64,000 nucleotides of DNA from Cyanidioschyzon merolae (taxonomy: Eukaryota): NCBI GenBank assembly GCA_000091205.1, contig AP006500.2, one strand, 5' to 3'. Below the pieces are notes generated by a model. The model was given only the letters and a program-made list of their open reading frames with translations. It searched no databases and was not told the origin of the DNA. Below, in pieces: positions 9,196 through 56,554 of the stretch (within the stretch, counting starts at the first letter, position 1; every line of letters begins with the position of its first letter). The translations under genes and the position numbers were made by a program.

Positions 9196-11726
9196 TTATA
9201 AAGGTCCAAGAAACTTCGCCTTCATTGCCCTCGAGCGTACGGTTATGCCGAGGAATTCCCTGCCCTGTAACGGGAGCGCGACATAGGGCGCTCTGCTGTC
9301 CGCAGATTGCGGCGAAGTGGCAGCGCGCAGCTGGACAGCAGCATCCCCCGGAGCGTATCGCCTTTTCGTGAGAGCGGAGCGTATCCGAAGGAGGGATTTC
9401 CTTCGGGTGCAGGATTATAGACGTGAGCTTGTTTTTCCCAATAGCGCCATGGTTATGGGATATCCGGGAGAGCGTCTGGTTTTCTGAAGGATATGGCTTG
9501 CACTGCCCCAGCGTACAGACAAGGCGAGCTGGGGCTTGACTTTACGGCATCGTCGCTGGATACGTTCGACGTGCTTGCACTGCATCTGCGTCTTTTCACT
9601 AAACATTGTTTGATCGGGCGGGTTTTTCTTTTGGAATGCTAAGCTGATGCGTGCGCATAGAAGCGGTTGGATGCCTGCATCATGAGTGTCAGCATGGGAA
9701 CGGGCCAGGTACACGTTCCGAACTCGGGCGTGAACGCTAGCTTTCTTGTTTCTCTCAGGTGTGATGGACAGCTGCCGTTGGGGAATTTTTTTCGGCGACT
9801 GTTCACGTTTTCTCTCTTAGTTCCAGATTACAATATGCTGGTCTATTCTTTCCATCCAGCTCTGTTCACAGCAGTTGACGGATGTTGGCGGTAGCGTTCA
9901 AGTCCGGATTTCGTACCTGCCGACAGTTGTCAACGCATTTCATGCACAGACGCAAGATGCGGTGTAGGCTCGCTTGACATCTTCATCTTTTTCATGTACA
10001 GTCTCGGTACGCAGTTTGCAGCTGTGACTCCTGGATATGGACAAATGAAGTATAAATCTATCTGCCATACCCTCTCGACTGAGATCCACGTTGAAGCGCG
10101 TAAACGCCTGCTAGATCGCTCCGTATACGCCCTTATATGAAAGGCGATCCTCGATGCCCTGCTCCGTTTCCGTGCCAGGAGCGATGCCCTGCAATGACGC
10201 GCTTGGTTTGGACTATACCGTCGGCGAATGTGCTGCCGGCTGAACGTGCAAGCGCATGCCGTCCATGATAAAAATTAGCTGAGGGCATATCATAACTGGA
10301 CAACAAGTCGAGAAATGTCGATTCGTCTACGCTTTCCTCGTGCGGCACGGTAACGAACGCCCGACTGCAAAACGATCGCCGTGCTGACTGAACGCCGAGT
10401 CCAGGATGCGTATCGGGGCAAACCGAAGCGAGGCGAGCCTCTGGGCGCTCATCGTGTGAGAGCGATCATGCTGCAGCTGTCGAGTTCTGGTTCGCCGGCG
10501 GCCACCCAGGGTGGGCATTGTCTTTCGAAAGAAATCGATTCCTTGACATGACAAGTTCAGAGAAGTTTCGATTTGAACTTGTGAGAATGTCATCAAAGAG
10601 CGATGTGAATTTATGTGACTTCTTCGTCAATCCATCGCAGCGCATCGCTGTGCGCATGCGGTGCCTTGAAATGTAGAGATCGAAAACTTGAATCATGTTT
10701 GATAGGAGCACGATACACACGTACGTGAGGGAGAAGATTCGCGGATTCTACTTGTGCATTGGACAATGATATCGGTTATTATACGAACTCTTGTTCGCCG
10801 GCGTCGCAAAACATCTCGATTTCGGTAACGGAATGAATTCCTTGTCCAAAGCGTTAAAGGAGCGATTCCGAAACAAAGGAAAAACACCGAGCATCTTTAA
10901 ACTACGTTCAAGTAAGACTTGATTCCTGCACTCCGAATATCGAGGTTGCACAGCTAGAACATAGTTCCGGAAAAGAATCGAACTGGATGAACAAAGCGAG
11001 TCATCCCCTACTCGATTTTATCGTCAGCGAAATGAGAAATGTTCTACGATAATTGAGGGTGTATGAATACATACATACGCAGACGCCTCCCAGCCTTGTT
11101 TTGACCGGTTCCCCGATACCGGTTTCAGCTTCTCCCTGTATACTTCGATCCTGAGAGGCTGCTGGACAAAAGTTGGACCGGGGCAGCTTCGAGGGTCACG
11201 TCCCCGGTACCAAACTTCTTCTGATATTGATGGCGGCGTTGAAGTCTCGGTTCACGAACTCCATGCGTTTATTGCCGCTGGTGAAGCGTATCATTGCAAA
11301 GATCCCTAGAACTCGTACCCTCTGTCCCAGTACAATCTCGCTATCGTCCCATCGGACAAACAGCTGTTCTCGAGTATATATCCCCTGTTCTTGTTCTTCG
11401 TCACTTGCTTTTCTTCGCTAGATAGTCGACGAGAAGAGGATCTTTTTCGGTTTTTATCCCGGTCGCCAGCGACACCAGCCCTCTAGAATCCCCGACTCCC
11501 ATGTCCATACGGTTCGCTTAGATTTCTTATTTCTTCAAATGAACGCTTTTCGGACGCTTCGATTACAAACCGAGAAAAAGCGTTTGATGCGACGCACCCG
11601 GAGATGGCGCACAATTCAAGAAAGCGTCTACAATCTGACACGAGCCCACCGCGGCTCGAGCAGGCAACGTACGCTCAGTGCCGCCTTTCGCTTCCTCGGT
11701 GTCGGTCTGGTACCTGGGCGCCACGA

Positions 11727-15335: not shown

Positions 15336-18300
15336 CGTTCATTCGTGTCGGCAGCTCGGCAGCACGAGCGCTAGTCAGAACGGCGCTTGCACCCAGAAAC
15401 GCGCTTGAACGACAGAAATATTTGTTAAGCGAGCAATGGGGTCTCGCTTGCCAAACCAGCCGGAGCAATGTTCGGTTGTTGGCGAACTCTACACCCGTGT
15501 CAGAGTAAAATGGGACACTGAACCGCTCGCTCTCTTCATTCCCATGGATTTTCTTACGACAGATCTTAGATGTCCAGCATCGACGTGAGCAGTGCGGCAG
15601 TACGAGATGATGGACTCATGCGTACTTTAAGGATGCTTGGACGTCTTTTCGGAGCGACTTGCCCGAGTGTATGTCGCAGGGATTCGGTACGGCATTGTCG
15701 TACTGATGGTCCTCGCCACCCTCGAACGAGGGTTCGTAATCTAACCGATACCGTTGTTCAATGCATAGGTACAGGCCTCCGCTGCCTCAAGTTTCTAGCG
15801 TGAAACATGTTCAAATCACGCATTCTTCAAGGTTTCGATCTTTGTGTTTCAAGTCGTGGATACAGTAAATCCGCCTTCGGATTCACGACGAACAAAAGCT
15901 CCATGTCGCGCCTCAACGACTTGTTCACAGGCGCGTACCCAAAGTCCACTGGACTTGGAACCTCAAATAATAACCGATTCCAGTCGATAGACAAATCATC
16001 GTTTCTTGCTGACGATTCGCGAAACCGGATTCCACAGTAGCAGGACGCTTCTCGACAGATTTGTTTCCAGTGGCTCCAGTTTCTTCTGTTTGCACGGGAA
16101 AGGGCCTTAAATTCAGAACTGAGTCATCACAGCGATCGATTCCAGCTGAGCATACGTCACCTCTTTGCAACAAAACAGCGTAGACCGATCGACATTTCTC
16201 GACTTGTTCTTCAACCTGGATTTTCCTTCCGGTACTTTTTTTCATCTCGGATAACATTGCATTCCGCAAATCCTCGATCGAATGCGACGCAGTGCGCTAG
16301 CGTATGCAGCGGACAGTGTACTCGCCCAGGGCATGTATCCGAACTGGCGCGTGTGAACGTCGGGCACGGCACCGGGCGCGGAAACGGTGGCCTGCATCGA
16401 GGCGCGCCTTGTGTTCGCGTCAAGCTCATGTACCGAACGATAAAGCAAGCGCTCACGCTCCACAGAACGGATACCAGAGGCGGAGGAGAACCTGTGATGG
16501 GCGTGCCAGAGAACATCACCCCAGCTCAATATCACCGCCGCAATGGGTGCACCGCGGCTTCATACGAAAGAAGATGAACATGGCAAGCGAGACGTAGATT
16601 GCAAGTTTCGTCGATACATGGAATTCGTCAACAGCAGCCGGAATCAACGACATCGGGACATGAACGCTGCCAGCAACAGCCTTTAAATACTAACAACACG
16701 GTACACGATAGAACCTATGCAGCAACCAGTATATCCCAGAGCACGTATGGAGTTTGGGGCTTGGAAGCAGGGCGCGGAATCATGTATGCTTCACCGCGCG
16801 CTGATATCGAGCGCACTGTCGGGGAACGCTAGCGTGCTTCAACGTTTTTGTCACAGAAACAAGAATGCTGACAACGGGACTGGAGGGAAACGATAGACCG
16901 GCGTATTCAAATCCGGAGAAAACGTGTTGAAAAGGAAGCATTCGCAGAGAACGCCCTCCTAGACGAGAACTGATGACACTGGGAACAGATCCAGACTTTA
17001 GCATGTACGCTTTCGTCAGCAAAAGTGGACCCCTTCCATTTTATTCTTATATAGATGTAGGCCCGGGCTGCGCGGAACACGCGCACCCCCGCCCGGGTTT
17101 CGAACCTGCATCGTGCATGTGCGACGAGGAACCTTGTACCATTTCCGCCATCCAAGGGCGAGGTTTAAAACACACAACAGGTACGCAGTGCTGCAAACGC
17201 TGTTCTCGGAAGCATCGCTCGGGCAACAGCGTTCCCACATGGAGAGCGGGAACGTCCCTCCGCCACCTCCTTGGGAACAGTGCCTTTCGCAGTGCGCTGC
17301 TTTGAAACACCACAGGGACGGATACGGCTTGCCGCAAATCACTCCAGTTTGAACCGCACTCGGATTCGGGTTCCACGCAGGTACGCGGACCCTCCGTCGA
17401 AACCCCAATGAGCGTACGCAATGCAGCGCTGTGGCGTTCTCCCGCAGCACCCCAACATGACCAGCACTGCCAGACAGTCCCAACTTGCGGCCACAAGCGT
17501 TGCAGGTACCCGTATTGTCGCGACGCGTTTCGACCGGATAGCCTCCCTGGATATGATGCTTTCGAACAAAAGCACTCAATTCCGATGCGCCGCAGTTAGC
17601 ACAGCCCCGCGAACGGATGCTCGCAGCAGCACATATGCGGCGGCCTTGGGCCCAATACCACGGGGTATGTCTGGGCGATTCCACTGCCGGACACTGTACT
17701 GGCTCGTTGTGCATTGGACAAATGCGAACCGACGCAACGAAGCGCACTTGCTTGCGACATGGAATGCGTACCACTGAATGGCGGCAACTGGTGCGACCCG
17801 TCGCTGCACTTACATGTTCGCCTCCAGGAATATTCTCTGCAGAATTGTTTGAGGCGGACAGACGCGTATGCACCTGCAGTAGCGAAGATGAGCCAGACAA
17901 GTGCCGATCCATGGTTCGTACCAGCGACTTGGATGATGTTTTTGCGGCTTTCCACGCTCGAACACGGGAGATGCGCTCTCATCTCGACGGCACAGTGCTG
18001 GTTGGTAGCCACGGATGCTGTACCACGAGCCAGGTCCGCCTGATTCTCCAGCTACATAGAGACTGCGCTGACCGCTCCGCACAAAACTTTCTTCGGCAAG
18101 TGCGAGTCGCGAAGCTCAGCTCCATGGCGCTTATCTAACGCGATTTGCAGGAACATGACGCGGAACGGAAACTGTTCGTAGTATACAGAATGGCGCGAAC
18201 ACGCTGCGCTCAGCGCCAGCGTGTCGAATGCCAAACCGGAAGCGGCATCTGGCAACGCACGCTGAACACAAGTGCAACCAGAACAGGGTTCTTCACTAAT

Positions 18301-30620: not shown

Positions 30621-30659
30621 AATTACGTTGCGCGCTGGTAACTAGCGCGCAACGTAATT
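30621..30659. repeat. Perfect inverted repeat (16-bp stem, 7-nt loop) aattacgttgcgcgct-ggtaact-agcgcgcaacgtaatt
   Basis: Read directly: 30621..30636 is the exact reverse complement of 30644..30659. Confidence 0.9.
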
Positions 30660-30864
30660 GTATTCCGTGGCCGGGAGCGTGTCGTCGAATGCTGTTTCGC
30701 GGTTGATGGCAGGGGCGTTGACGTGCGTTCATTTGAATGAACGAAAAAAATCCAAAGGAAATGCATGGAGATAAAGGTCGGGGATTCCAGAGGGCTGGCA
30801 TCTCTGGGTACCGTGAAAGGACTGAAAATTCTCTTCTCGTTGACTATCGGGCGTAGGAGAGCAA

Positions 30865-31050
30865 GTGACGAAATGGAAGAAGAGAAGATATCATCGAGAC
30901 AAGGCGTTTGTCCTACGGGACGATGACGGGACTATAGTGGGACGGAGGATGCGAGCTCTAGGAATCCTGGCAATCATGCGTTTCACTGGAGGCAATAAAC
31001 GCAAGGAAACCGTGAACCGGGACTTCAACGCCGCCATCAATACCAGATGA
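30865..31050 (+). pseudogene. Short ORF ending in a TnpB/Fanzor-like RuvC-III motif (NRDFNAAIN); possible remnant of an IS605-TnpB/Fanzor-type nuclease gene
   Basis: 61-aa ORF (GTG start) ending ...GGNKRKETVNRDFNAAINTR*. The TnpB/Cas12/Fanzor RuvC-III consensus is D-R/A-D-x-N-A-A-x-N-I near the C-terminus. No zinc-finger cysteines are present and there is no upstream reading frame (in-frame stop at 30841..30843). If real, this is a degraded fragment. Confidence 0.2.
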
Positions 31051-31254
31051 TGCGCGGCGCTGGAGACGAGACCCGAGGAGCAGAGGCGAGCGAGCTTTGT
31101 GGGGCCCCCTCTGAGGCTCGATGTCTACGTCGAGGAAAGTGATACCGAGCGCAGGCGGTCGGTCAAGAAAGGTTGGGCAGCGTCTGCGCGTGGACACGTA
31201 CGTAGATCTTCCATGGCTGCGAAACGTTTGCGTTTACTGTCATGTTTAGTAGAG

Positions 31255-33245
31255 TTTTTTGGTTTGACACGTCGTCTACAGCGACGATAGATCCCAGATT
31301 GCGGGATGGAATCTGGTATTCGGGAAAGCATCGAACATGCAGCACCCTACCTTCAAGCTTTGTAACCCCGAATGCTTCTCGTATATATTGGTAGTTTCGT
31401 ACAGTCTATTGCGCATCGAGTGCCTGCCCTGAGCACCCGCTACAGCGCTTATACCGCTGGTGCGCATGCAGCACAGTAACGGAACGCCTTTGCCATACGA
31501 CTTGGGGCGTCGCCTGGAGGCGAACTGCCCCTGAACCAGGCTCCGGTCTTGTCGCCGCTGCGCGACGCTCTGGAGAAACCAGACAGCAGCTAGGATGAAT
31601 CCTGAGCGCCGCCTCTCACGTTCGCGATGTTGTACGCAAAGCGTTGTCGGTTGGCGACGCGGGCTTTTGCTTGGCATTCACCAGTGAGCAGGTGTGCAAG
31701 GCACCGGGCCTTCCGACGAGAAGGTAGAATGTGAGTTTGCTGGCCGCTACTGAGCGTTGGGGCTCGCTCAGTTACGAGACCGACGCCTCAATCGATACGA
31801 GCGCGGATGGATTGGACGGGCGTATGCGGCCTGTGGGGTGGTCTTGTGCCACAGGCGCTTCCGCTGACGGGTACGCGGTGCGCTCGGAGCTCGGGTGCTC
31901 TGCGCGTTTGTTACGGAGTATTGGGGTCAGCGCTGGACACGTTCAGGTACGGAGTAGGAAAATAAGCATGCATAGGATGGGGGTTTGTTGTCTTGTGCGC
32001 ACACTTGTTTCGGAATGAAGCGGAACGTGTCTATGGAGCCAGGTAGGTTGTGCGCGCTAACGCCTGGGTCTGTTGCTAGTGGTACCAGTACCAGCTTTGG
32101 TGGACCTTTCCAGCGGCGGATTTGTTTGCCGGTCCCTTAGTTTTGGATTTAAATGGGCAGGTCTTTCGTGTTGCTCCAGCTCCGTTGCCGGCAGTCGAAA
32201 GACGGCGAAAGCAGGTCAAGTCCCGAATGGTCTGCTTTGCGTAGTTGACGACACATCCCGTGCACAAGTAGTTGCTGCGGTCGACGATTCGCTTCCCATG
32301 CTCATTTTCCTTGTATGCAGCATCGGTGCGCGAGTCGCAGCAGCAGTACTCGGCTGTGGTCAGGTGTTCTCATATGACCAATAGACTTGTTCCCCGTTTG
32401 AGAGCAGGTCTGTGGCGTACGAACACCTGCTTCGGCGCTCGTTGCGTACCCTTCACGGGCACCGAAGGCGTCAGTCGGTACCCGCTTCCATCAGCGAGCC
32501 CGGTGCCGTAGCCGCCGATCACTGGCCTCCGCTGGGGTATCCCGTCGACGAGTACGGTGACCGTTGCAAACGCGTACCCTGTTGCCTTCCATAGAGGATT
32601 TGTGGAACGCGATGTTCCATATAATGAAACGAGGAACGGAAGAAGAATCAAGGCCGGAGAACAAGTTGAGGAAACTCGATCCGTCTTGGCTTCTTTCATG
32701 CAGCGCAGTGAAGCATTCTTTATTGGAATCGATTGCTGGGATGGCTCAAGTCCGAGTCCAAGACCTTCGTCTGCGCAGGATTGAGGACACGACGCGGGCC
32801 CTGCTGGAGGTTATCGCGTAACAGGCATCACGCTACAGTCGAGACCAGTTTCGCCGATGACCCTGCAGCCAATACGTATTTCTCTTTCGAGCACGAATCG
32901 GCTACTTGACTTGAGACGTCCACTGAGCATTCGGATGGAGCCTGTAACCAAGTCCTCTGTGGACAAGGTCCAGTTTCTCGCCTCGTGAACAGCGCTGTGC
33001 GAATCGCTGGGCGCACCTGACGCTTTGAAACACAAAAGATCCAAAACTTGATGCGTCCTTGATCCGAGCATGCTACTCGCACGGAAAGGCCAAGAGTGAA
33101 TGCTCCTACGCATGGTTTTGAGAATGATATCCGTTATTTTAGAATTCCGTGTTTGAATGCGTTGCGAATTGACTTGCTTTCCGTAACGCAACGAATACCA
33201 GCCGCAAAGCGTCGAGGGATCCCGCTTCGAAATGACGGCCAAGGC
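31255..33245 (+). repeat. Dispersed repeat family, full-length copy A (about 1.99 kb), unclassified, no transposase/RT
   Basis: About 97-98% identical, in inverted orientation, to 48372..50362. The same small ORFs recur in the paired copies: 31276..31677/49945..50268, 31731..32018/49604..49891, 32073..32384/49238..49558, 32370..32699/48923..49252 and 32811..33341/48380..48811. The boundaries are defined by where similarity to copy B begins and ends. Confidence 0.85.
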
Positions 33246-33434: not shown

Positions 33435-35891
33435 TCACTCGGGTGTCATGTGCCAGTCCTCATGCCAACGCGTGTTCCAGAGACGTAACGTTTGGTCGGC
33501 GGCACCGCTCACGAGGCCGTATTCACTCAGTGCGAGGCAATTGACGGCGCCGGTGTGGCCGAAAAACGCCCGACGTAGCATGGACGGACGACCTTGTGCG
33601 GGTTCCAGCAGCTGATGCATATCGTAGGCGCGAACGACTTGGTCCGCGCACCCGACATAGAGACGATCGCGGTCGAAGCGAAGCGCATTGATGCTGGAGC
33701 CAGTCTCGAGCACTTGGCGGCATTTGGCTGTTCGCAAATCCCACACTCGCACACACTCATCGCTGCTACCCGTGATCAAACGACTCTCATCGAACTGGAG
33801 ACAGGTGACAGAGGCCTGGGTTGCCTCACCGTCCCCAGACTGCGTCACTGGCAATGTGCGGTGGCAACGTCCGGTTCGCATGTCCCACATTTTGACAGTA
33901 CCGTCAGCACTTGCCGTGGCGAGCCCGTAGCGCCAAAACTGCAGTGCAGTGATGCCAGCCTCGTGTCCTTCCATGCGCAGGACGCGAGCGCGAGTTTCCA
34001 AGTCCCAACAGCAGAGCGTTCGATCGGTCGAACCAGTGATAACACGAGCATCATCCATTTGAATAGCCATGATAGCACCACGATGACCTCCAGCGAATAC
34101 GTGCAGACATCGGTGACGTCGTGTGTGCGGCAGAGAAGTCAGCGGCGACGAAGCGCTTTCCTCGGCGTCGTATAGTTTCCACAGACGAGCGGTGCGGTCC
34201 GCAGATCCCGACACCAACAGTGTGCCTGTTGGATGGATATCGAGGGCGTGTACCCAGCCCTCGTGGCCGTGCAGAGTGTCCTTCCGCGATCCAAACGGAT
34301 CCTTTGAGTCCACAAAAGACTCATCCAAAGACATGCAGACTGAAAGATCCCAGATGCGCAGCGTGCGATCAGCAGACGCAGAAACAATGATATCTGCTTC
34401 CTCGTGCACATCAGCAGCGAGCACCTGGCCAGTGTGCCCGTAAAGCGTACGAATGCAGAGGCGAGGGGTCAGGGAGTCGCGTTCGGAGCCCCGGGCGCCG
34501 CTGCTACTGTGGCGGCTTTCATTGGCAACGGCTCCGAGACGTGCTCCGGTCGGCATGTCCGCTGCTGCTTCGTCGGAGCTCTGTGGAGGATTCTCCGTTT
34601 TGAGCTCGGGAGGCGCACTCGTTGCACTGGGTAGGAAACTCGATCGACCGCGCCGCTCTTTGAGCGCTCGCTCCACCGCCTGAGCGACACCCGAGCCCTT
34701 GAGTTGCCGGATACGCTCCTCGAATGCAACGCTTTCAGAGCCAATAACGGTAACCTTCTCGTCCAAATTTCCAAGAAGTAGACGACTCAGTTCATCTCGC
34801 TCGCCCAGACTCTCCAGTTTCTCTTCCAAGGCATGTTTCTTGGTCAAAAGCTCTGCGAGCGCGGCCTCAACTTCCCGCAAGTCTTGAACGGTAGCGGCGC
34901 GCGCACGATAACATTTTTCGGACTCTCGAATGAGGTACTCTCGATCCGCTTGAAGCTCCAGATATAACCTCGCGATGTTTTCCAGAGACACAATATGCAT
35001 GTTTGGCGACATGCGCATAAGCCGTCTCTGTAACGGCGATGGCGCAGCGAGTGGCCCTTGATGACGATCGCTTTCCTCTGGTGCATTTTCCAATAAACCT
35101 CGGACTTTCTCTTCGGTCACATGCGGAGGCACATCGCTGGCTCCTTGCGACTGCAGAATGCGCGTCAGTGGCGATACCTGATCGTCTTTGGTTGAGGCAA
35201 GGTTTTTCGCCGCACCGAGCCAACCAGGCGAATCGGCTTCTTCATCCTGGTGGCCGAACGGAGATGCCGGTTCGACTGAGCTCGCGCCGTCCGCACCGAT
35301 AAGCGTGGACGCAGCCTGTCGGTCACTGCGTCCGTCTCTGTCAGGTGCTTCACTGACCTGCTCGTCTGAGTGGTCGATACCAGCGTGTGCACCCTGCGGC
35401 GTCCGCGTATTATGAACGGCATTTTTCACCGCCAGTGCCCTGTCCGCGTTTCTGCCAAGAGGCTCCCGAGTCGCCCCGGGACGTAGACGCGCCGCCCCGC
35501 GCTCTGGAGGCTTGCCCTCGTTCGCAGACGGCTCGACGCTTCCACGAAACTTCTGAAAAGCAGCTACTGGATCCAGTGCCTGGAGGTTCTCAGACTGTTG
35601 GTTGGTCCGCTCCCGTAGGGGCCTACTTGTGCCCTCACCTGGCCCATGGACCTTGTTCCGGGTCACAGTTGCTGCTACTTTCTTATCTTCTTTGGTCGCT
35701 TGCTTCGACTTGGTGCGCGCCCGAGTCCCTTCGGCACGAGCAGCGCTGTTCGTCCAAATACCCATCCCAGAAAGAGCCTCAAACATTTCAAAGGGAACGC
35801 TAATCGCGCAGTGCAGATAAAGCACGCCGAGCACTACCCCAAGAACAGGGAACGGTTCTGGGGTTCCGCGAGTCCCACCGCCAGCCCCCAT
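33435..35891 (-). CDS. WD40-repeat protein with N-terminal coiled-coil (striatin-like architecture)
   Basis: The six-frame ORF runs 33435..36119, but its first 76 aa are encoded by or adjacent to the 61-bp tandem repeat. The probable start is Met77 (MGAGGGT..., nt 35891). There is a central coiled-coil (IARLYLELQADREYLIRESEKCYRARAATVQDLREVEAALAELLTKKHALEEKLESL). C-terminal WD40 repeats are present (LHGHEGWVHALDIHPTGTLLVSGSADRTARLWKL, ITGSTDRTLCCWDL, ATASADGTVKMWDM, ITGSSDECVRVWDL, VSGAADQTLRLWN). Confidence 0.7.
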   Translation of the reverse strand: MGAGGGTRGTPEPFPVLGVVLGVLYLHCAISVPFEMFEALSGMGIWTNSAARAEGTRARTKSKQATKEDKKVAATVTRNKVHGPGEGTSRPLRERTNQQSENLQALDPVAAFQKFRGSVEPSANEGKPPERGAARLRPGATREPLGRNADRALAVKNAVHNTRTPQGAHAGIDHSDEQVSEAPDRDGRSDRQAASTLIGADGASSVEPASPFGHQDEEADSPGWLGAAKNLASTKDDQVSPLTRILQSQGASDVPPHVTEEKVRGLLENAPEESDRHQGPLAAPSPLQRRLMRMSPNMHIVSLENIARLYLELQADREYLIRESEKCYRARAATVQDLREVEAALAELLTKKHALEEKLESLGERDELSRLLLGNLDEKVTVIGSESVAFEERIRQLKGSGVAQAVERALKERRGRSSFLPSATSAPPELKTENPPQSSDEAAADMPTGARLGAVANESRHSSSGARGSERDSLTPRLCIRTLYGHTGQVLAADVHEEADIIVSASADRTLRIWDLSVCMSLDESFVDSKDPFGSRKDTLHGHEGWVHALDIHPTGTLLVSGSADRTARLWKLYDAEESASSPLTSLPHTRRHRCLHVFAGGHRGAIMAIQMDDARVITGSTDRTLCCWDLETRARVLRMEGHEAGITALQFWRYGLATASADGTVKMWDMRTGRCHRTLPVTQSGDGEATQASVTCLQFDESRLITGSSDECVRVWDLRTAKCRQVLETGSSINALRFDRDRLYVGCADQVVRAYDMHQLLEPAQGRPSMLRRAFFGHTGAVNCLALSEYGLVSGAADQTLRLWNTRWHEDWHMTPE

Positions 35892-36070
35892 TTCAAATTG
35901 CCGCACCTGGGCGACGCGCCACCCCGGAGGCGCATCCCGAGCGCGCCATCCGCGACTGACGGCAGCGCAGCGATCGATGCGCTCGCGGCTCCGGAGCGGA
36001 GAGCGCTGGTGCGCGTGCGCTGCCTCGGGGCATCCTCCCTGGACGAGTGAGGCACCCGCGGTACCTTGTC

Positions 36071-36320
36071 GGCGATTTGTAGAGCTGCATAGGCCGACGC
36101 GCATACAGCAGCTTCTCACTCGATATTTGGTGGCGATTTGTAGAGCTGCATAAGCCGACGCGCATACAGCAGCTTCTCACTCGATATTTGGTGGCGATTT
36201 GTAGAGCTGCATAAGCCGACGCGCATACAGCAGCTTCTCAGTCGATATTTGGTGGCGATTTGTAGAGCTGCATAAGCCGACGCGCATACAGCAGCTTCTC
36301 AGTCGATATTTGGTGGCTGA
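36071..36320. repeat. Tandem repeat, 61-bp unit x about 4.2 (ggcgatttgtagagctgcataagccgacgcgcatacagcagcttctcactcgatatttggt)
   Basis: Four near-perfect units at 36071, 36132, 36193 and 36254, followed by a partial unit. It lies immediately 5' of the WD40 gene. Each unit encodes MRSCCMRVGLCSSTNR in the gene frame, which artificially extends the ORF. Confidence 0.9.
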
Positions 36321-37812
36321 TGGCGACCAGCTGGACGCTCCAAACAGCATCGTAAGCAGGGCTTTATCCGAAGAGTACTTGCAACGCTTCTCGGTTGTGC
36401 GCAGCGCGCGCCAGTGATCACCAGGTTTGGTGCTTTTCCAGAAGGCATTAATCGGGGTTGAGCAAACCCATTGCCATAGAGGCAGCGCATGTGCAAATGT
36501 TTTTTGAGATCCTGTACTTGAGATGAGCACCCGCTTGCGTAGGCTTCCCCGAGTCTGCTGATCTATTCGGACCTGATTCATGTGTAGCGCTGGGAGCGCC
36601 ACTGCAATGCTGTGTATTTTTACTAGTTCGCGTCCGGGTGCGCGCAGGTTTATCTCCGAAACAGCCGTGCGGCGTCGGAGATCCCGTCCCAGTTTCTCGC
36701 TAGCTGCGCTGGTCCAGCTAGCTGACTTGAAGTCAACGAACGCTTGCGACTGGCCGTTCATTTTGGGGATCGTTCCGCTCGTTGAGAAGCCCGCACAAAC
36801 ACTGTCTACGACCTCGTCAGAGACTGGAATGAACCCATCAGTTGAGAGCCGGGATTGCTCAATATCTCCGCATTTATCACACAAACCGAATGACAGGGTC
36901 TCCGCCTGTGATCGTCCTCATCCCTCACGATCAAGAATAGAGGCAGTGTGCTTCCGGTCGCGAAAATGAGGTGCAACTGGATTCCACGGCCGACGCACCG
37001 AAGCATGTGCATCGTCGGCAGCGCGATGCCTCACATGCCATAGCTCTGGAGCGTTCGACTCGCCACGTGAATCACCAAGCGATGCAGAAAATAGTATTGC
37101 AGGCGTCAGCAGGCAAGACGATTGGTGCCGATTACTTGGGATCAACAACGCATTCGTCGCGACAGCGCGAATGCATCGCAAAGAATAAACGCTTTATGGC
37201 CCGGAAGCGTATTCTTTAGCGCACTCGGCCGGAAACGCCTGACGGTTGCATCCCCCGAAGACGCTCGTACGCACCTCTCCGCTCTAATAGTCTCAGTGCA
37301 CGCATGAGCGGCTTCGAAACGCGAACTGACGTGCCCCGAACGGGGCTGGCGTTAGCGCACCCCCATCTTACGGATTGATGCATACCAGTCCAGGGCGAGA
37401 AACATTTCAAAGGCAACGCAAAAGAACCTAGAGCGAACAGAGGACAGCTATCCGCATTGTGCGCTGTGAACTTGTACAGCGCTCCACCTCATCCAGTCCA
37501 GTGGCGGGAACACAGGAGAAAACGAGCCACCAATCCTCTTTGATATGTCCCATTTTTATCACCAAGTGTACCCATTCGCACCGTCGAACAGGGACTTGCC
37601 TTTGTCGCTCGAGAGCACACTGCTCATTCTCGAGGGTGCTGCGTGGAGACACAACCCCCATTGCTTCCGAGAAGAGAGGTCTCGAGGTGAGCATCTGCGC
37701 AATGGATTGTTCTCGTTCGTCGCGTATGTACTCGACCTGTTCGGTGCTTGCCGAGGAGCATTCGAGCATCGAGAAGCCCTGCGGTCGCAGACAATCCGGC
37801 ACATCAGTAGTG

Positions 37813-38517: not shown

Positions 38518-38719
38518 CTCGATCCAGCACCAATAAACGCCTCCGTGCAGCGGCAGTGCAGTCGTTCACTGCGGTCGACACGGCAGGAACGCTGGTGAGC
38601 GTCCAACAACAACCGAACGTACCCTGTACCGATTCCCTTAAGCGCAGCGTACGCTGCGCGATCGTGGTGTCGGGGCGTAGCGCGCCGCAGGCGTGAAGCC
38701 TGCAACAGCACCCCCTTGC

Positions 38720-39075
38720 AAACGTTTTGTCTGCGAGGTGCAGCGCAAACTAGCAAAGCTAAATCGGTTCGAAGAAGCCTCTGGTGAAGGTGGGAAGGTT
38801 CCCCTATCGTAAGCGTCTTGTTTGCGAGGTGCAGCGCAAACTAGCAAATCTAATTCGCTCAGAGGAAGCCTCTGGTGAAGCTGGGAACCTATCCCCTATC
38901 GTAAGCCTCTTTTCCACAAGGTGCTACGCAAACAGGCAAGGCTGAACCGCTTCGAGGAAGCTTTTCGTGAAGGTGGGAACCTTTCCCTGTCATAAGCGTC
39001 TTTTCTACAAGGTGGTACGCAAACAACCAAAGCGACGTAACTTCGAGGAAGCTTCTCTCAAACGAACCGCTTTTC
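38720..39075. repeat. Imperfect tandem repeat, about 90-bp unit x4, in the divergent promoter region directly upstream of NDUFV2
   Basis: Four units, each containing ...gcgaggtgcagcgcaaactagcaaa...gaagcctctggtgaaggtgggaa...cctatcgtaagc.... Divergence increases toward the 39077 start codon. Confidence 0.8.
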
Positions 39076-39826: not shown

Positions 39827-41371
39827 TGCGCATGTACCATGGAGGCTGTTCTTTTCGGCAAACGTTGGATGCTGGTCGGGTATCGATATGGTGTACCCGA
39901 CGGCGGGTGTCGAGTCTTGATGTCAGCGCTTGGCGCCAGAGAGGCGTGTAGCAGAGCGCACGTCCGCATCAGCGCGACGAAAAGCACTGAAATCCTGTCG
40001 GTGACGAGGGATGCATCCTGAGCGACGCTAACATTGCCTCGTTCAAGTGTGGTACAGCGAGCACTGTTTCCATCTGCTTGGACGCATATAGCTACTGTGG
40101 TTCGCGCAAGCGTCGTCGCAAATATTTGTATCCCTAATCATTAAAGATCGAGAAACGGGTACCCGCTGAGAAGCCTGGACCCCAAACCGAGTCATCTTGC
40201 CGCTCAACGAGGGCGATAAGTTGCCGCCGCTCGCCACCCAGCGCATTCCATGAAATCATGCGAACTGGATACCGGGGACGAAGCGGCCGCAGCCTCGTGC
40301 TTTCAGTTGCGTTCGTGCCCGCGAGCGCCACATCCAGTGCATTGCCCATTCGGAGGCCGACGCACCTGCCATCGTCCTGGTTGCCCGTGCACGTCTGCGG
40401 TAATATAGAGGCCGTGTCATGCCTGTTATTGTTTCCGTGCGCGCTGCTTGACAGCCAGGCCCGATTTGCGCTTTGTCGTATACGGTGGCTGCTGATGGCG
40501 AACCGCGACTTGACCGCGCAACCAGTCTGCGCACAGGGCATGTGGCATGCGTGGCGGCAGTCTGGACTATCCATACGCTCGGATGCATGGCGCTTGTGAA
40601 CATCCCAGGTCCAACGAGGTACGCGCTCATGGTGCCGAACTTGTACGCGACTCTGTGAAAAGCAAATCGGACCTGAGTCCGGGGTTCACGGGTACAGTCC
40701 TTCCGCGGATCAAGGCTCTCGTTGTAGTTTTAGCTGCACTTGCTATCTGGATCATCATGGTAACCGTGTCGGTCCGCGGAGGTCACAGATGCGCTAAACG
40801 CATGCCAGCATAAAATGGAATGGGCGCACTGACCTCACTGCTGCATACGCGCTAATATTGGGCTCTCTCTTTTCCAACTGGTATCGAATCCAGCTTTTGC
40901 GGGGTTTTTCTCTGGAACTGCCTCCACTTTCTCCACCTCACTTCCGGTTTTCGAAAGAACGCGCTCTCTTGTGCTTACTTCCTGGTTGTCAGCAGTCGAA
41001 GCGTGTTGATTGCTGGGCCAAAGTCCCAATATCGGTGTTTTCGGATGCTGTAGACGCATGTCATGCACAGATGAAAGGTGTGATCGGCGCAATGTTCACC
41101 TGCTTTGGAGACAGACTCGGTGCATACTTCAGAGCGGTGACAATCGGCTGTTTTCAGGTGTGACCATGTATCCACCATGCCGTTTCTTCAGCAGGCTGCC
41201 CTGTGGCGCGTGAACGCTTCCGTCATCGCTCGGTACATGCTCTGGACGGCTCCAGGATGCTGCCCGCGATACCCTCTCCGTTTCAGAGCTGGATGAGGTA
41301 CCCTACGATCACAGGCTTCTTCCGGGCGATCCGCTCGGCGAGGTCCCTGTCCACTGCATAAGGAAGCGCAC

Positions 41372-42063
41372 GCTGTTGCCTTCCATAGAGGATTTGTGGA
41401 ACGCGATGTTCCATATAATGAAACGAGGAACGGAAGAAGAATCAAGGCCGGAGAACAAGTTGAGGAAACTCGATCCGTCTTGGCTTCTTTCATGCAGCGC
41501 AGTGAAGCATTCTTTATTGGAATCGATTGCTGGGATGGCTCAAGTCCGAGTCCAAGACCTTCGTCTGCGCAGGATTGAGGACACGACGGGGGCCCTGCTG
41601 GAGCTTATTGCATAACAGGCATCGCACTGCAGTCGAGACCAGTTTCGCCGATGACCCTGCAGCCAATACGTATTTCTCTTTCGAGCACGAATCGGCTTCT
41701 TGACTTGAAACGTTCAGTGAACATTCGGATGGAGCCTCTAAAAAGTCGCCAGGTAACAAAGTCGAGTTGCCTTGAAACCAGAGGATCAAAAACTTGAGGA
41801 ATGCGTGATTCGAGCATGCGACACACGAGGAACTGAGCGGCCCGAAAGCGCATAGCTATGCGTTGCCTAAACCGGTCATTTATTTTAACGAACCCTAGCT
41901 CAGGGGCGTTGCGATTTATGTCGACTCCCGAGACGTAACGAATTCCAGCTTCAGGAGTATCGAACAAATGTGTCCGACACACCATCTGAGGATCCTAAAC
42001 CTCCGTATGAATCCATAAGCCATCAGTACTGCACCTCGAGTCTCGAGGCTGCACATCTGAAAA
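41372..42063 (+). repeat. Dispersed repeat family, 5'-truncated copy C (diverged subfamily)
   Basis: The 5' part matches the copy A core (A about 32579..32940) at high identity. The 3' part is a diverged homologue (about 70%) of the A/B 3' region. It is near-identical to copy D over its length (ORFs 41376..41615/56970..57227, 41514..41789/57126..57401, 41605..41985/57217..57597). Confidence 0.8.
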
Positions 42064-45000
42064 CACTGCGGAAGAATCGCATGGGCGCAACTGAGCGCCC
42101 TGTTCTGTGTTCCATTCGAATCTGACACGGGAGTCGCGAAACTTCAGGCTTCGCAGTACTGAACGCAATCGTTTCGACGGTCGTTATTCGTGCAATCCAG
42201 CGGGCTCGTCTCAAAAATCCCAAGTCATATCGAATAACCGAACACCGTGACCGTCACTCGTTGCCGGGGATAATCTATCACGGTGTATGCGTGCGGCGCA
42301 TCAACTTTGCTTCCCGTACCGTACCAGTGCCGTACTCGAGATGTGGACCCAATTCTCTGTCTCCTGGACAGTGACTTTCGTCAATGGAAGCCTTCAGAGT
42401 CTCAGCACAATGCTCCCACTGAGTATAAAGCGGCTCCCTCGAGAGTTCGGTCGACACACGAAGCCGCTGGACGCTCCGGAAAAGGCGAGTACCTCGGGGA
42501 TGCTCATCGATGCATTCAAGCGTCGGTGCGGAATGGCATGCTCGCATGGCCACGAACGGAATCGTACCCGAGTCTCCAGGGCGTGTTCGATCGCCCAGCC
42601 GTCTGACGTTCGCCCTTCCTAACGTACACGATCTCGTGGAACCTGCTCTGTTTCACGCTGGTTTTCTAGATCCGTTTCAATGTGCACCCGTCTTCGTGAC
42701 AGCCGCGTGTCGTCCTGAACGTATCGACGGGAATCGTATGGAACGGATACCTGCAGTCGTGGCACGCTCGCAGCAAACATGCAGGCGTGCAGTCCTTGCG
42801 CGCTACCGCGCGTCCATTTCCATAGGCTGCCATCGAGCGACGCGACGTATCGATGAAACCCATTTTCAACGCACTGAACGAGCAGGCGAATGCATGGTTG
42901 TTGCCTCTGTACCTCGGAAACTGTTGGCGACTCCAGCGTGCTCTCATGTAGGCCCGCCGCAGATCGCATACACGAGCCATCCGGACGCTCATGTACTCGA
43001 TGAAGTGTGGAATTCCTTCCACCATTCACCATTTTTCTCTGCAAGTGAGTGACGATGCTACGCACATAGAGCGTAGCTCATGAAGCGCCCGAAATTGACC
43101 AGCACGTGATTTGGGTTTTTGAGGTTTGCCTGATACGTTTTCGGACCGGCGCTTCACGTGCCCCGATCGTCGACTTGTCGCTGCGGCGCGTCGCGGTGCA
43201 CTGAGAAGCGAGTGTGCAGTTCTCGGAACCCCCAACCAGGTTCAGAGATGTATGCTGTGTCCGAACATCGGTCGCACTGTCGCATTAAGGTGTGATCAAT
43301 CAAGTCCAGAGGAATGTGGAAAGCTGGCAGCCCTGCCTCCGGAACTCGTAAGAAAAGCTGCTCGACGAGGTATGCCACAGCGAGAGGAGCTGGGCGAGCC
43401 TTCATCGAGAAGGAAGCCTCGCGACGCTCGACGGCGTCTTGTATCTGCTGTTGTCACGGATGTGAACAACTCGACTACTGATGCGTGAGCATAAAAAGTG
43501 GACTTTGACGGCAGGGAAAACCCCTTCGACTGGATTGTACAATAGAGCATGGGCTGGCATAAGCGCGGCCCGACGCCATTCTGCGTTGCGGCTCCTTGAT
43601 TGATTTTGAATCATGGAAAGCGACGGTATCTAAGAACAAACCAGAAGAACGCGCGAGTGAAAGGCCACAAAGTGCTCCGACGAAGAATGACCTAATGAAT
43701 GCTCCTATGCGTTTGGCGACTGATATGCAACCATGAAGCTGAATCGCCGCTTGGACTGATATTGTCGGAATGTCCGCTTGTCTCGTGTTTACGAACAGTG
43801 GGTAGCTTCGCTTTGAGTACTCATGTACAAATCTACCAACTCGACCGCATAACGTCTCACCGAGTGAAATGAACACCCGTCCTTCGCGTTTCAGTACGGA
43901 AACGCATGGAGGTTATGGAGCACTCGACGGTCGTCCAGTGAAGCGCGCTTTCCTCTTTGTGCATTCGTGTAGCGTTACCGCAATTCGTACCCAGGGAGCG
44001 GAAACTTGACATCCTGTAGATTTTCTCGCAGTATTCTGCAAAGAACTAGTGGAATGGAATGGATTGACGAGCGGGCAGCCGTGGGAAGAGAATGTAAAAA
44101 GTTTCCTTTTAGGTCTACAACGATCAGGTTCATGACTACAACGACGATGGTTCGTCCGCCTGTTGACGGTACAGAGATTGCCTTTTGGACGGAAAGCCGT
44201 TCTTTGCATGCCAGCACTGACAGCCTTAATCCTTTGCGCGACTTGTCTCCAGTTGACAGGAGACACACCCCTTGGGTTCGATATCTGCGAGAGAAACGAG
44301 GGAAAATGGGGTGTGTTGGTTTCGGCATGCCAAGTTTCACTGCGCTGAGCATAACAGCGGCAAGCGAACCCCCTCTGAGCATTGGACTCGTTCAAACAAA
44401 CTGTGCTTCTTTTGTACCAGTACATTCGACAAACGCTACGCTTCTGTTGAGCGCCCCACGCCCGCCAAGCAGTGCTCCGGCTACCCACAGCAGCGTCGGC
44501 GGCAGTTCTTGTGGTCTCACGGTTTGCACACGATGCGTTTGTTGGTGCTTTCGTGCGACTCCCGCCACTGGAAACCTTTGAAAAACCCGCACTGTAAACG
44601 TTTCGCTGCGGTTTGGTCGAAACTCGAGCGCACGGACGCTCGCAGCACCACGCTTCGCGGGTGGCAGCGCGATCGTCACCGGGTCCGGTGCCGACCTGTC
44701 GCTGACCACCCAGAAGCCCGTGCTACACCCTGTTCACCTACTGGTCTCCTAGTCAAACCGGTACGTTGCCGCGTCTCGCATGCCGTCTACTGCTTCCGCC
44801 TCCGCTCGTATAGATGCGGTAGTTGCTTCGGGGTACGCGCCTGCCGCGTTCCACGATAGAGCCGCCAGCGTCTCCGCAGCGCCGAACGATGGCTGAACGA
44901 GGGCGCGCGGAGACGCACCAGCGTCAGCTTCGTCTCCGCAGCTGCAGGCGAGGCGTCGCCGCTCATCCACAACCGTTCTGTGTGTGTGTGTGTGTCGAGT

Positions 45001-46203: not shown

Positions 46204-48069
46204 TCATTCGCTTGATAGATTCCTTGGACTAGGTGCATTCGCTGGTGCACTCTGAGGTTTGATTTGCGTCTGAGCCGGCGGTCGACGGTTGCAGATCAGT
46301 GCTTGACCATCGGCGGAAACTTGCGCGCCACTTAGTGTCAAGATTTGTTCTAACGAGGAGCACCGCTCTGGATGCAGCGTGCTGTTGCGATGCTGCTTCA
46401 CCGATGCGCGATGTGGCGATCGCCTTTCGGGTATCGAGGAGTCTTCAGGATTGAGATCCACGAGCTCTTCGATGAAACCCAACGGGACGCTGGGACGGTA
46501 AGCAGTCTGAACGGCGTTGAGAACTTGTTGAACAATGCGCGTGTCGAACCAGGACACCAAATGCCTTGCCGTTGGTGGCAATCTCTTTCGGATACGCATA
46601 AACGAAAAGTAATCGTGGCGAGCGAGCGCTAGAACGAGCTGCACAGTAGTGCTCCACAGGTCTATCGTGTCGCGTGCAGCGCTTGATTCGGCGACAGTTT
46701 CGGCAGCAGCATCGCCAAGCAGGTCTTCGTCGCGCAAAATGAGCCGAACATCGAGCAGACTCCCGGTATACAGAGCCAACAAAACGCTGTACGAGAGAAA
46801 TTCTCTCTGATTGGAACGATATTCGGAGCGACTCGCCTGGAACAATGATTTCAGCATCGAAAGGCACTGGCTGAGCTCTGCGACGTCGTCGTGGAAGATG
46901 GCGAGGCGAGCATGCGTCTCGTATACATCGAAAGCGAGGCGATGTTCAGCACCTAGACCTTGCACTTGCATATCCTGCCGAATGGCTTTCAACTGCTCGC
47001 GAAGGAAGGTATAGTCTATGCTGCCATGCTCCCATCGCGACATGAGCTGGGCGAAAGCCGTCTCCAGAACGGAAAGCGGGCGAACTTGATCAGCTTGGGC
47101 CTCTTTCGTGAGTCGCAAATATGTTTTCTCCAGGACAGCCGACGTTCCGACGAGCCGATGTGCATGCGCATCCGTCTGCTGCAGAGACGCCCGCGAGTTA
47201 TCCTTGGACACGATAAGCTGGGATGCTTCCAGGCGCTGTCCGCATTTCAGGTGTTCCCGGAAACGTTCCGCACGGGCACGTCGCCGGGATGCTTCCGCGT
47301 GTGCACTGGGAGTGTGCATTGGCGAGCCACTTTGATGCCGCAGTAGCGTATCGGGAGAAACTGGATCCCAACCGGCCCTTAAATGATGGTTTCCTAACTG
47401 GTTTTCCAACGGGTAAATTGCCGCATCATTGCCCGACAAGGCGGAAGCAGCTTGCAAGGGTGTCATTCCCAGCGGGTGTGCAGCCGGTCGCTGAGGCATA
47501 TCCGCTATGCCTCGTCGGTCGGGAACTCGCGTTCCCGTCATCGCTTTGGGGAAAAACGCGTGGTTGCCCAGCGAAATACCCGCTTTTTCCGAGACCTTCG
47601 GTGCGGTGGCTTGGAGCTTGGGCCCTGCTGGCTGGGCCTGCAGGCGATTGTCCCGGGAACCGGTCCGTTCTCTTTGCGTGACGGCTTCCGCGAGTCCACC
47701 CGCCGCTAGACAGGTCGTTTCCGTCTTGGACAAGCTTTTACCCGAGCCGTCCCCGTCCTGTTTAGCGCCCGGACGAAAAATGGGCGGTGCAGGGGCGCGT
47801 CTCCCGTCGACGCAGTTCACATAGACGGTGAGCGACCGACCGGCGTCGGCTGCGGCAGGGTTCGGAAGCTTTCGGCGCTCCCAGAGCCAGCGCGTTCTAT
47901 CCAGTCGCGAATCATACAAGAACTCTCGTCCCGCTTCGTCCAGGTGATATGAAATGTGCGACGGAAGCAGCGCTCGATAGTATTGTCGGTTGGCCTCGAA
48001 GAGTTGCGCTCCGATCGCTGGGACCTCCATCAGTCCGCAGCTGCTGGCAAAGTTGACCTGTACGGTCAC
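46204..48069 (-). CDS. SAC3/GANP-domain (PCI-type) protein, LENG8/Thp3-like
   Basis: 621-aa ORF. The C-terminal half contains the SAC3/GANP core YTFLREQLKAIRQDMQVQGLGAEHRLAFDVYETHARLAIFHDDVAELSQCLSMLKSLF (consensus ...LRSIRQDLTVQ...VYE.HARIALE..D..EFNQC). The N-terminal half is low-complexity. Confidence 0.6.
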   Translation of the reverse strand: MTVQVNFASSCGLMEVPAIGAQLFEANRQYYRALLPSHISYHLDEAGREFLYDSRLDRTRWLWERRKLPNPAAADAGRSLTVYVNCVDGRRAPAPPIFRPGAKQDGDGSGKSLSKTETTCLAAGGLAEAVTQRERTGSRDNRLQAQPAGPKLQATAPKVSEKAGISLGNHAFFPKAMTGTRVPDRRGIADMPQRPAAHPLGMTPLQAASALSGNDAAIYPLENQLGNHHLRAGWDPVSPDTLLRHQSGSPMHTPSAHAEASRRRARAERFREHLKCGQRLEASQLIVSKDNSRASLQQTDAHAHRLVGTSAVLEKTYLRLTKEAQADQVRPLSVLETAFAQLMSRWEHGSIDYTFLREQLKAIRQDMQVQGLGAEHRLAFDVYETHARLAIFHDDVAELSQCLSMLKSLFQASRSEYRSNQREFLSYSVLLALYTGSLLDVRLILRDEDLLGDAAAETVAESSAARDTIDLWSTTVQLVLALARHDYFSFMRIRKRLPPTARHLVSWFDTRIVQQVLNAVQTAYRPSVPLGFIEELVDLNPEDSSIPERRSPHRASVKQHRNSTLHPERCSSLEQILTLSGAQVSADGQALICNRRPPAQTQIKPQSAPANAPSPRNLSSE

Positions 48070-48371: not shown

Positions 48372-50362
48372 TCGGATTCTTGGTCGTCATTTCGAAGCGG
48401 GATCCCTCGACGCTTTGCGGCTGGTATTCGTTGCGTTACGGAAAGCAAGTCAATTCGCAACGCATTCAAACAAGGAATCCTAAAATAACGGATATTATTC
48501 TCAAAACCATGCGTAGGAGCATTCACTCTTGGCCTTTCCGTGCGAGTAGCATGCTCGGATCAAGGACGCATCAAGTTTTGGATCTTTTGTGTTTCAAAGC
48601 GTCAGGTGCGCCCAGCGATTCGCACAGCGCTGTTCACGAGGCGAGAAACTGGACCTTGTCCATAGAGGACTTGGTTACAGGCTCCATCCGAATGCTCACT
48701 GAACGTCTCAAGTCAAGTAGCCGATTCGTGCTCGAAAGAGAAATACGTATTGGCTGCAGGGTCATCGGCGAAACTGGTCTCGACTGCAGTGCGATGCCTG
48801 TTACGCGATAACCTCCAGCAGGGCCCGCGTCGTGTCCTCAATCTTGCGCAGACGAAGGTCTTGGACTCGGACTTGAGCCATCCCAGCAATCGATTCCAAT
48901 AAAGAATGCTTCACTGCGCTGCATGAAAGAAGCCAAGACGGATCGAGTTTCCTCAACTTGTTCTCCGGCCTTGATTCTTCTTCCGTTCCTCGTTTCATTA
49001 TATGGAACATCGCGTTCCACAAATCCTCTGTGGAAGGCAACAGGGTACGCGTTTGCAACGGTCACTGTACTCGTCGACGGGATACCCCAGCGGAGGCCAG
49101 TGATCGGCGGCTACGGCACCGGGCTCGCTGATGGAAGCGGGTACCGACTGACGCCTTTGGTGCCCGTGAAGGGTACGCAACGAGCGCCGAAGCAGGTGTT
49201 CGTACGCCACAGACCTGCTCCCAAACGGGGAACAAGTCTATTGGTCATATGAGAACACCTGACCACAGCCGAGTACTGCTGCTGCGACTCGCGCACCGAT
49301 GCTGCATACAAGGAAAATGAGCATGGGAAGCGAATCGTCGACCGCAGCAACTACTTGTGCACGGGATGTGTCGTCAACTACGCAAAGCAGACCATTCGGG
49401 ACTTGACCTGCTTTCGCCGTCTTTCGACTGCCGGCAACGGAGCTGGAGCAACACGAAAGACCTGCCCATTTAAATCCAAAACTAAGGGACCGGCAAACAA
49501 ATCCGCCGCTGGAAAGGTCCACCAATGCTGGTACTGATACCACTAGCAACAGACCCAAGCGTTAGCGCGCACAACCTACCTGGCTCCATAGACACGTTCC
49601 GCTTCATTCCGAAACAAGTGTGCGCACAAGACAACAAACCCCCATCCTATGCATGCTTATTTTCCTACTCCGTACCTGAACGTGTCCAGCGCTGACCCCA
49701 ATACTCCGTAACAAACGCGCAGAGCACCCGAGCTCCGAGCGCACCGCGTACCCGTCAGCGGAAGCGCCTGTGGCACAAGACCACCCCACAGGCCGCATAC
49801 GCCCGTCCAATCCATCCGCGCTCGTATCGATTGAGGCGGCGGTCTCGTAACTGAGCGAGCCCCAACGCTCAGTAGCGGCCAGCAAACTCACATTCTACCT
49901 TCTCGGCGGAAGGCCCGGTGCTTTGCACACCTGCTCACTGGTGAATGCCAAGCAAAAGCCCGCGTCGCCAACCGACAACGCTTGGCGTACACCATCGCGA
50001 ACGTGAGAGGCGGCGCTCAGGATTCATCCTAGCTGCTGTCTGGTTTCTCCAGAGCGTCGCGCAGCGGCGACAAGACCGGAGCCTGGTTCAGGGGCAGTTC
50101 GCCTCCAGGCGACGCCCCAAGTCGTATGGCAAAGGCGTTCCGTTACTGTGCTGCATGCGCACCAGCGGTATAAGCGCTGTAGCGGGTGCTCAGGGCAGGC
50201 ACTCGATGCGCAATAGACTGTACGAACTACCAATATATACGAGAAGCATTCGGGGTTACAAAGCTTGAAGGTAGGGTGCTGCATGTTCGATGCTTTCCCG
50301 AATACCAGATTCCATCCCGCAATCTGGGATCTATCGACGCTGTAGACGTCGTATCAAACCAA
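48372..50362 (-). repeat. Dispersed repeat family, full-length copy B (about 1.99 kb), inverted relative to copy A
   Basis: See copy A. The reverse complement of 48372..50362 aligns end-to-end with 31255..33245, with a few substitutions and one or two small indels (for example the frameshift near LYET/LYEL). Confidence 0.85.
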
Positions 50363-50684
50363 AAATAGAATCAGGGGATCGCAACGGAGATCATTTCGAC
50401 GCCACGCGGGGACGTCCTGACGGCCTCTCCGACGCCCGCAAGCCGCACCGAACGGTTATTGTGGCAGAAACGATCCCAGTTCGAGCGGATCCCCGGCGAC
50501 GGGTGGTAGACAACGCTGCTGGACCCGCTGGTGCTGCCATGCGGGGACCGACCCGCCCGACGGACAGAGCAGTGGACGCTCTGACCAGCGTTGGCATCGT
50601 CACTTGGTCAAAGCCTCTGCTCAGAGACTGTGGAGGTGTCGTCTCCGCGGGCCCTGGAGCACGGTTTTTTCCGTTCTGTGACGG

Positions 50685-56188: not shown

Positions 56189-56554
56189 CGAGGCGCTTCT
56201 CTGCGCACAGCGCTGCTCAACAACCCGGCACCGTGTGAAACTCCATTCCGACGACGCTAGAACTCATGAATCCGGCCACAAACCTGAGACCGAATCCACG
56301 AAAAAGCGGCCCAGACGCTTTGGTACGCTGTTCAGCGAGCGCAGACGGAGACTAGATCCTCACGAGGTATAGCAGCACACCAGCGTTTTGCGGAAGCAGC
56401 CACTCCAACGTCAACACGAAATGCAACTGGTCCGCTCACGCCACACAGGCGTACGCGTTCATCTTCGGGTCTCTTACACCTGTTATCATCATCATCAACG
56501 CTTGCGGCTTTTGTTTCTGTGACGGCTGCCTGTTTCTGTGACTGATCACCGGCT

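Follow-up and report, generated by a model that had tools for sequence, protein, structure and literature searches.

We conclude with high confidence that the 61-codon open reading frame (ORF) analyzed here is not a gene and that it stands open by chance within a dead copy, with an internal deletion, of the Fanzor1 element CMe-1A, on chromosome 18 of the nuclear genome of Cyanidioschyzon merolae 10D. That copy is called the relic, or relic copy 1, and the window is the whole 64,000-nucleotide stretch of the chromosome that was analyzed. Fanzor1 is an omega-RNA-guided RuvC DNA endonuclease of eukaryotic transposons (PMC11423790). The Fanzor1 family of C. merolae is already known, having been described by Bao and Jurka (2013, Mobile DNA 4:12; PMC3627910), and the relic is one of its approximately 150 decayed copies, each reported to be about 80% identical to the 3169-bp CMe-1A consensus. 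According to their account of CMe-1A, the element encodes a 734-aa Fanzor1 protein, CMe-1, of which intact copies exist; it shares its 5' 635 bp with TE-N2_CMe, and no transposase, TIRs, hairpin ends or TSDs are reported for it. To the published family our analysis adds a short subfamily with a shared deletion, the L069-like origin of that subfamily, element ends lying about 10 nt past the published consensus, and the finding that Pfam misses the family.

The ORF was listed with a GTG start and encodes MTKWKKRRYHRDKAFVLRDDDGTIVGRRMRALGILAIMRFTGGNKRKETVNRDFNAAINTR, its C terminus reading KETVNRDFNAAINTR before the stop codon. GTG is not a normal start codon in eukaryotes; it entered the listing through a bacterial ORF rule, and the earliest in-frame ATG is codon 28. 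Because of its GTG start, the 61-codon stretch is merely a formal ORF, and its 61-aa sequence was uncalled as a gene or protein in every source checked. Eight long ORFs of the window match exactly annotated proteins CMR169C to CMR509C. The initial annotation had described an ORF ending in a RuvC-III motif, with neither an upstream open frame nor zinc-finger cysteines, and had proposed that it was, if real, a degraded TnpB/Fanzor relic. The motif and its stop codon are present as described (Table 1), with the RuvC-III block (RD-x-NAA-x-N) near the C terminus as NRDFNAAIN at 31015-31041. The frame upstream is indeed closed, with the intact frame of approximately 700 aa absent from the relic, and the ORF contains no cysteine. 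The missing zinc-finger cysteines are partly a family trait, since residues 645-680 of the CMe-1 consensus are cysteine-free too.

Table 1. Coordinates of the features discussed, given as positions in the window
Feature	Position	Strand	Basis or remark
Perfect palindrome, AATTACGTTGCGCGC-N9-GCGCGCAACGTAATT	30621..30659	.	15-bp arms, 9-nt spacer
5' leader and first ~21 Fanzor1 codons	30679..30828	+	blastn to CMe-1A consensus 826-968, 67% identity, E = 9e-13
Junction of ~1.8-kb internal deletion	30829..30913	+	gap between the two consensus matches
Formal ORF	30865..31050	+	residues 27-61 alone homologous to CMe-1 residues 645-680
Fanzor1 C-terminal coding remnant	30914..31191	+	blastn to CMe-1A consensus 2808-3088, E = 1e-31; ~aa 635-727
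RuvC-III motif codons D-F-N-A-A-I-N	31021..31041	+	ORF listing, motif scan
Premature TGA	31048..31050	+	stands where the consensus has Arg-681 (AGA)
Non-coding 3' tail of short element	31192..31255	+	aligned to four further short copies; 3' termini from 30 loci
Repeat copy A, composite	31256..33243	+	opens with ~265 bp of CMe-1A-type 5' terminus
Copy 2, same short deletion derivative	11079..11652	-	consensus 766-969 joined to 2833-3084; E = 8e-12
Third Fanzor1 relic	42531..43495	-	tblastn E = 3.5e-19 (CMe-1), 9e-21 (P0149)
Fourth C-terminal relic, very decayed	16612..16686	+	RYMEFVNSSRNQRHRDMNAASNSL then stop, including RHRDMNAASN

The CMe-1A consensus DNA and the CMe-1 protein used for comparison were taken from supplementary files of the published account (PMC3627910). 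The 61-aa ORF aligned with CMe-1 at 58% identity (E = 3e-9), and tblastn of CMe-1 against the window matched 30943-31128 to residues 645-707 at 56% identity (E = 1.6e-14), reading across the TGA. Past that codon the homologous frame resumes as CAALETRPEEQRRASFVGPPLRLDVY, compared with CAVLEKRPPELTRENFVGQPLKVELY in CMe-1. The relic motif aligns with NRDFNAAINI of CMe-1 and, through the family profile, with NRDMLSTCNM of SpuFz1. Together with the DNA homology to CMe-1A and the matches of the profile to Fanzor1 structures given below, these alignments bear out the proposed TnpB/Fanzor ancestry, and no observation spoke against the identification. The ORF is short, has a GTG start and has no Pfam match, and one could on these grounds suppose that the motif arose by accident in a spurious ORF within GC-rich intergenic DNA. 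We consider this vanishingly improbable, given homology to a published Fanzor1 protein that runs past the stop codon and nucleotide matches to the consensus that flank the shared deletion. The motif count also speaks against chance: translation of the window in six frames gave D.NAA.N at three places (31021 +, 11246 -, 16657 +), compared with a per-window mean of 0.005 when 200 sequences were simulated under a first-order Markov model.

The relic, a decayed deletion copy of CMe-1A, spans roughly 30679-31255; in it the 5' leader and opening ~21 codons of the gene are joined to its final ~100 codons, which include the RuvC-III aspartate block NRDFNAAIN, and the 3' tail follows. A remnant of the start codon was found at 30765 (ORF 30765..30926), where the relic reads MEIKVGDSRG... 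and the consensus MEKEVEDPGG.... Homology to the consensus begins near position 800-826, not at the 5' terminus of the element. The catalytic blocks of the family were located through alignment to SpuFz1; in CMe-1 they are GADPGNTN (RuvC-I) and VDEFRTS (RuvC-II), accompanied by an HH..C..C region. Consensus positions ~970/1010 to ~2807, which hold the pre-RuvC region, RuvC-I, RuvC-II and the HH..C..C region, are missing from the relic, and with the blocks of the RuvC-I aspartate and the RuvC-II glutamate absent its nuclease domain is incomplete. Loss of this ~1.8 kb accounts both for the frame being closed upstream and for the missing RuvC-I, RuvC-II and Cys-His regions. With this segment gone, a premature stop and frame disruptions, the relic cannot make a nuclease. 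The 3' tail contains GCGAAACGTTTGCG, similar to the 3'-terminal GAAAGRCGTTTG of the family. A close-strain contig (L081), 99.2% identical, stops short of the relic. A WNK-like kinase gene neighbors relic copy 1.

The same deletion was found in other copies. Copy 2 shares a segment of ~520 bp with the relic (11078-11601, minus strand; 71% identical), and its equivalent frame ends in KRMEFVNRDFNAAINIRRSLVPGT before a stop, with a longer reading ending in GNKRMEFVNRDFNAAINIRRSLVPGT before a stop. Among 80 Cyanidiales metagenome loci (L001-L080), which were fetched using the CMe-1 protein, the same junction was present in L026, L028/L041, L066 and L012/13/77, and an ORF of at least 300 aa containing the motif was kept in one of the 80. 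When 1.84 billion representatives were searched by phmmer with the 61-aa ORF as query, 33 matches were returned, all but one of which were 33-216 aa long. Except for three shorter matches (beginning at residue 29 or ending at residue 54), those with a reported stretch begin at query residues 1-15, indicating that most span the junction region; the matches represent genes called on further copies of the short derivative. The junction shared across copies suggests that the deletion product was amplified as a non-autonomous subfamily of ~560 bp. The 3' tail and the best full-length relatives of the short derivative point to an L069/L070-like subfamily of CMe-1, not to the published consensus proper. 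Divergence per codon position was 0.32/0.28/0.36 among five copies, and such even divergence points to neutral decay.

These observations fit a history in which a single deletion arose in a master element related to L069/L070, the ~560-bp product then multiplied as a non-autonomous element, and its copies afterwards decayed neutrally, the 61-codon ORF being an accident of that decay. The parent protein probably acted as an RNA-guided RuvC nuclease that supported the element, an activity that intact CMe-1 would have by analogy with Fanzor1; the relic copy itself would be inert.

The presence of one deletion product at several independent loci, and thus its amplification, would also fit a short element that is a non-autonomous passenger with only a guide RNA, for which intact Fanzor1 copies act in trans, or one whose ancestral in-frame form encoded a mini-protein of ~140-200 aa. 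In known OMEGA and Fanzor systems the guide RNA and the 3' gene end overlap. The short element retains the 3' gene end and the tail, where TnpB/Fanzor omega RNAs are encoded, and in some metagenome copies (P0165, P0168 and P0173) a single frame still links the K/R-rich N-terminal portion with the C-terminal one. We nevertheless regard both versions as very unlikely. For the passenger, the whole-window scan gave no Rfam match, and RNAalifold revealed no conserved structure in the 3' region of 10 copies, with covariation contributing -0.5 kcal/mol, a value that neutral decay after insertion makes uninformative. For the mini-protein, the flat codon-position divergence indicates no constraint at the protein level, and a functional mini-protein in the present copies was rejected on this ground. 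Relic copy 1 carries a stop codon and frame disruptions, which speaks against either version. Neutral decay of an amplified deletion derivative remains the preferred account.

The initial annotation had also pointed to a perfect hairpin about 200 bp upstream as the kind of end carried by IS605-type elements. The hairpin is real: the palindrome lies 206 bp upstream of the 61-codon ORF, has a fold z of -5.5 compared with shuffles, and adjoins the 5' limit of recognizable homology. As an element end it was rejected, since it is absent at that position from the four other aligned short copies and its arm sequence neither recurs in the window nor occurs in any of the 80 related loci. It is therefore highly improbable that the relic derives from a horizontally acquired prokaryotic IS200/IS605 element with the hairpin as its left end, even though its motif is common to TnpB. 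Its nearest kin are CMe-1, a Fanzor1 family of eukaryotes, and the Fanzor1 structures, the ORF listing holds no TnpA-like ORF near the relic, and the published account reports CMe-1A without TIRs and hairpin ends (PMC3627910).

Downstream of the relic, the link that had been suspected with a neighboring repeat was borne out. Repeat A starts 206 bp past the stop codon of the ORF and 65 bp past the coding remnant, and positions 4-256 of the CMe-1A consensus correspond to 31265-31520 at 77% identity; the repeat A twin carries the same terminus. Since repeat A opens with a CMe-1A 5' terminus, the 3' tail of the relic lies against the 5' end of a further member of this wider family, and repeat A would represent such an element inserted beside the relic. 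The twin is inverted, at 48379-50365, and is 98.6-99% identical. The pair brackets ~15 kb containing a WD40-repeat gene (33435-36119, minus strand), a SAC3/GANP gene (46204-48069, minus strand) and a Fanzor1 relic, and could mediate inversion of this interval. An 831-bp module of repeat A (32145-32975) has further copies at 56551-57380, at 41298-41768 (in part) and at 16120-16380, with identities of 97%, 89% and 69%; it is unclassified and has no match to the CMe-1A consensus.

Further remnants of the family were found in the window. The third relic, which is internally deleted, retains residues ~66-200 and ~499-654, including a RuvC-II region (...TIPVDTFRTT...), and contains stop codons. It belongs to a more diverged subfamily, with ~43% aa identity to CMe-1, and is closest to the metagenome protein P0149. 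The fourth relic adjoins an inverted CMe-1A 5' fragment at 16696-16853 (minus strand; consensus 159-4), and an isolated fragment of the CMe-1A 5' region lies at 54734-54902 (plus strand; consensus 90-256, 70% identical). This part of chromosome 18 is thus a transposon graveyard, with four Fanzor1 relics and several CMe-1A 5'-end fragments in the window, and this bears on the annotation of neighboring genes. As annotated, CMR174C (362 aa) begins within relic copy 2, at 11604-11652, and its close metagenome orthologues are called at 295 aa, so the annotated N terminus may be too long.

The window also contains tandem repeats of 90 bp x 5 (61265-61804), 61 bp x 4 (36066-36370) and ~91 bp x 4 (38711-39070). 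The region around the hypothetical gene CMR509C (50685-51764, plus strand), at 50608-52293, has four overlapping ORFs longer than 250 aa, distributed over both strands; CMR509C has no Pfam domain, and its cluster includes many short metagenome contigs.

Comparison of the metagenome loci extended the element at both ends. Independent copies (for example L043 1215, L072 3097, L040 3192 and L033 4096) share ~10 extra bases on each side of the CMe-1A consensus, with GATTTTTTTC ahead of CGATGACAAAACGTTTAC at the 5' end and TTTGTTG... following TTTTGAAAGRCG at the 3' end. Both ends carry a T-run and an A(A/G)ACGTTT core, with the palindromic core AAACGTTT, and the likeness of the two termini is marginal by shuffling (P ~0.04 in direct and 0.11 in inverted orientation). 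Head-to-tail arrangements were seen at L031 2512-2568 and L034 3642-3698, where a full 3' end is followed after 55 bp by a 5' piece of 644 bp, the size reported for TE-N2_CMe. The coordinate offsets of L031 and L034 are identical, so they may be one locus; their arrangement resembles the abutting elements at 31191/31265 of the window. It is an unlikely conjecture that the ~560-bp derivative may persist by retaining a guide-RNA module, or ends recognized by mobilization machinery, and that the ends (T-run, palindromic core) and the abutting arrangements could point to integration beside resident copies via a circular intermediate. If true, the short derivative would be a eukaryotic counterpart of the guide-RNA-only non-autonomous derivatives of IS605.

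Two further variants were observed among the metagenome elements. An 80-bp in-frame tandem repeat in the Fanzor1 gene (consensus 2117-2196), encoding KHEEKKEADPATQEVQENDFVV, varies from 1 to 4 copies (L001, L027, L035 and others). In a large subgroup (L018-L020, L029, L030, L032, L064, L078 and others), consensus 84-255 is inverted and precedes consensus ~671 by ~140 bp; this rearrangement of the 5' region sets these elements apart as a subfamily of their own.

Detection of the family by standard profiles was poor. The Pfam scan of the relic ORF returned no families at E <= 10, and the scan of the metagenome homologues gave nothing significant. Cas12f1-like_TNB (PF07282), the current name covering OrfB_IS605 and OrfB_Zn_ribbon, matched the full CMe-1 consensus with E = 0.51 and 11 bits, against a cut-off of 26.3. 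The initial annotation had named the lack of a profile match among its grounds for refutation, a test that would wrongly reject the relic, since even the full CMe-1 consensus scores no better than this and the relic scores nothing. Reading for the C-terminal D-x-N-A-A-x-N motif can reveal Fanzor relics overlooked by Pfam. CMe-1 was combined with seven metagenome homologues (8 sequences) into a profile, which was searched against the PDB and matched only 8gkh (Spizellomyces punctatus Fanzor1, E = 5.8e-7) and 9cer (Guillardia theta Fanzor1, E = 0.009).

Compared with known systems, the relic resembles the TnpB of IS200/IS605 and IS607 and Cas12f in its C-terminal D-x-N-A-A-x-N RuvC-III signature. 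Relic and CMe-1 differ from bacterial TnpB in having no significant Pfam score, TnpA or conserved hairpin ends, and in their eukaryotic nuclear setting. The CMe-1 family is like SpuFz1 and the Guillardia Fanzor1 (8gkh, 9cer), its profile aligning across the RuvC domain with DPG (RuvC-I), DEF/DEY-xTS (RuvC-II) and NRD... (RuvC-III) in register; the relation is distant (31 bits), and the relic retains the RuvC-III block only. Unlike CMe-1A, the relic is an internal-deletion derivative of ~560 bp with ~1.8 kb missing; its short-deletion subfamily apparently goes without mention in Bao and Jurka's account of CMe-1A (PMC3627910). The 3' tail of the relic matches the L069/L070 subfamily, whereas the published consensus tail has a GCCGCCA...TGGCGGC hairpin instead. 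The opening of repeat A with a CMe-1A 5' terminus parallels the 5' 635 bp reported as shared with TE-N2_CMe. The relic and CMe-1A stand in the same genome and are homologous over consensus 826-968 and 2808-3088, and the protein homology to CMe-1 (aa 645-707) includes NRDFNAAINI(R). The relic is ~70-77% identical to the CMe-1A consensus, which fits the ~80% reported for this old family. It is a member of the CMe-1A family by descent and not a functional one.
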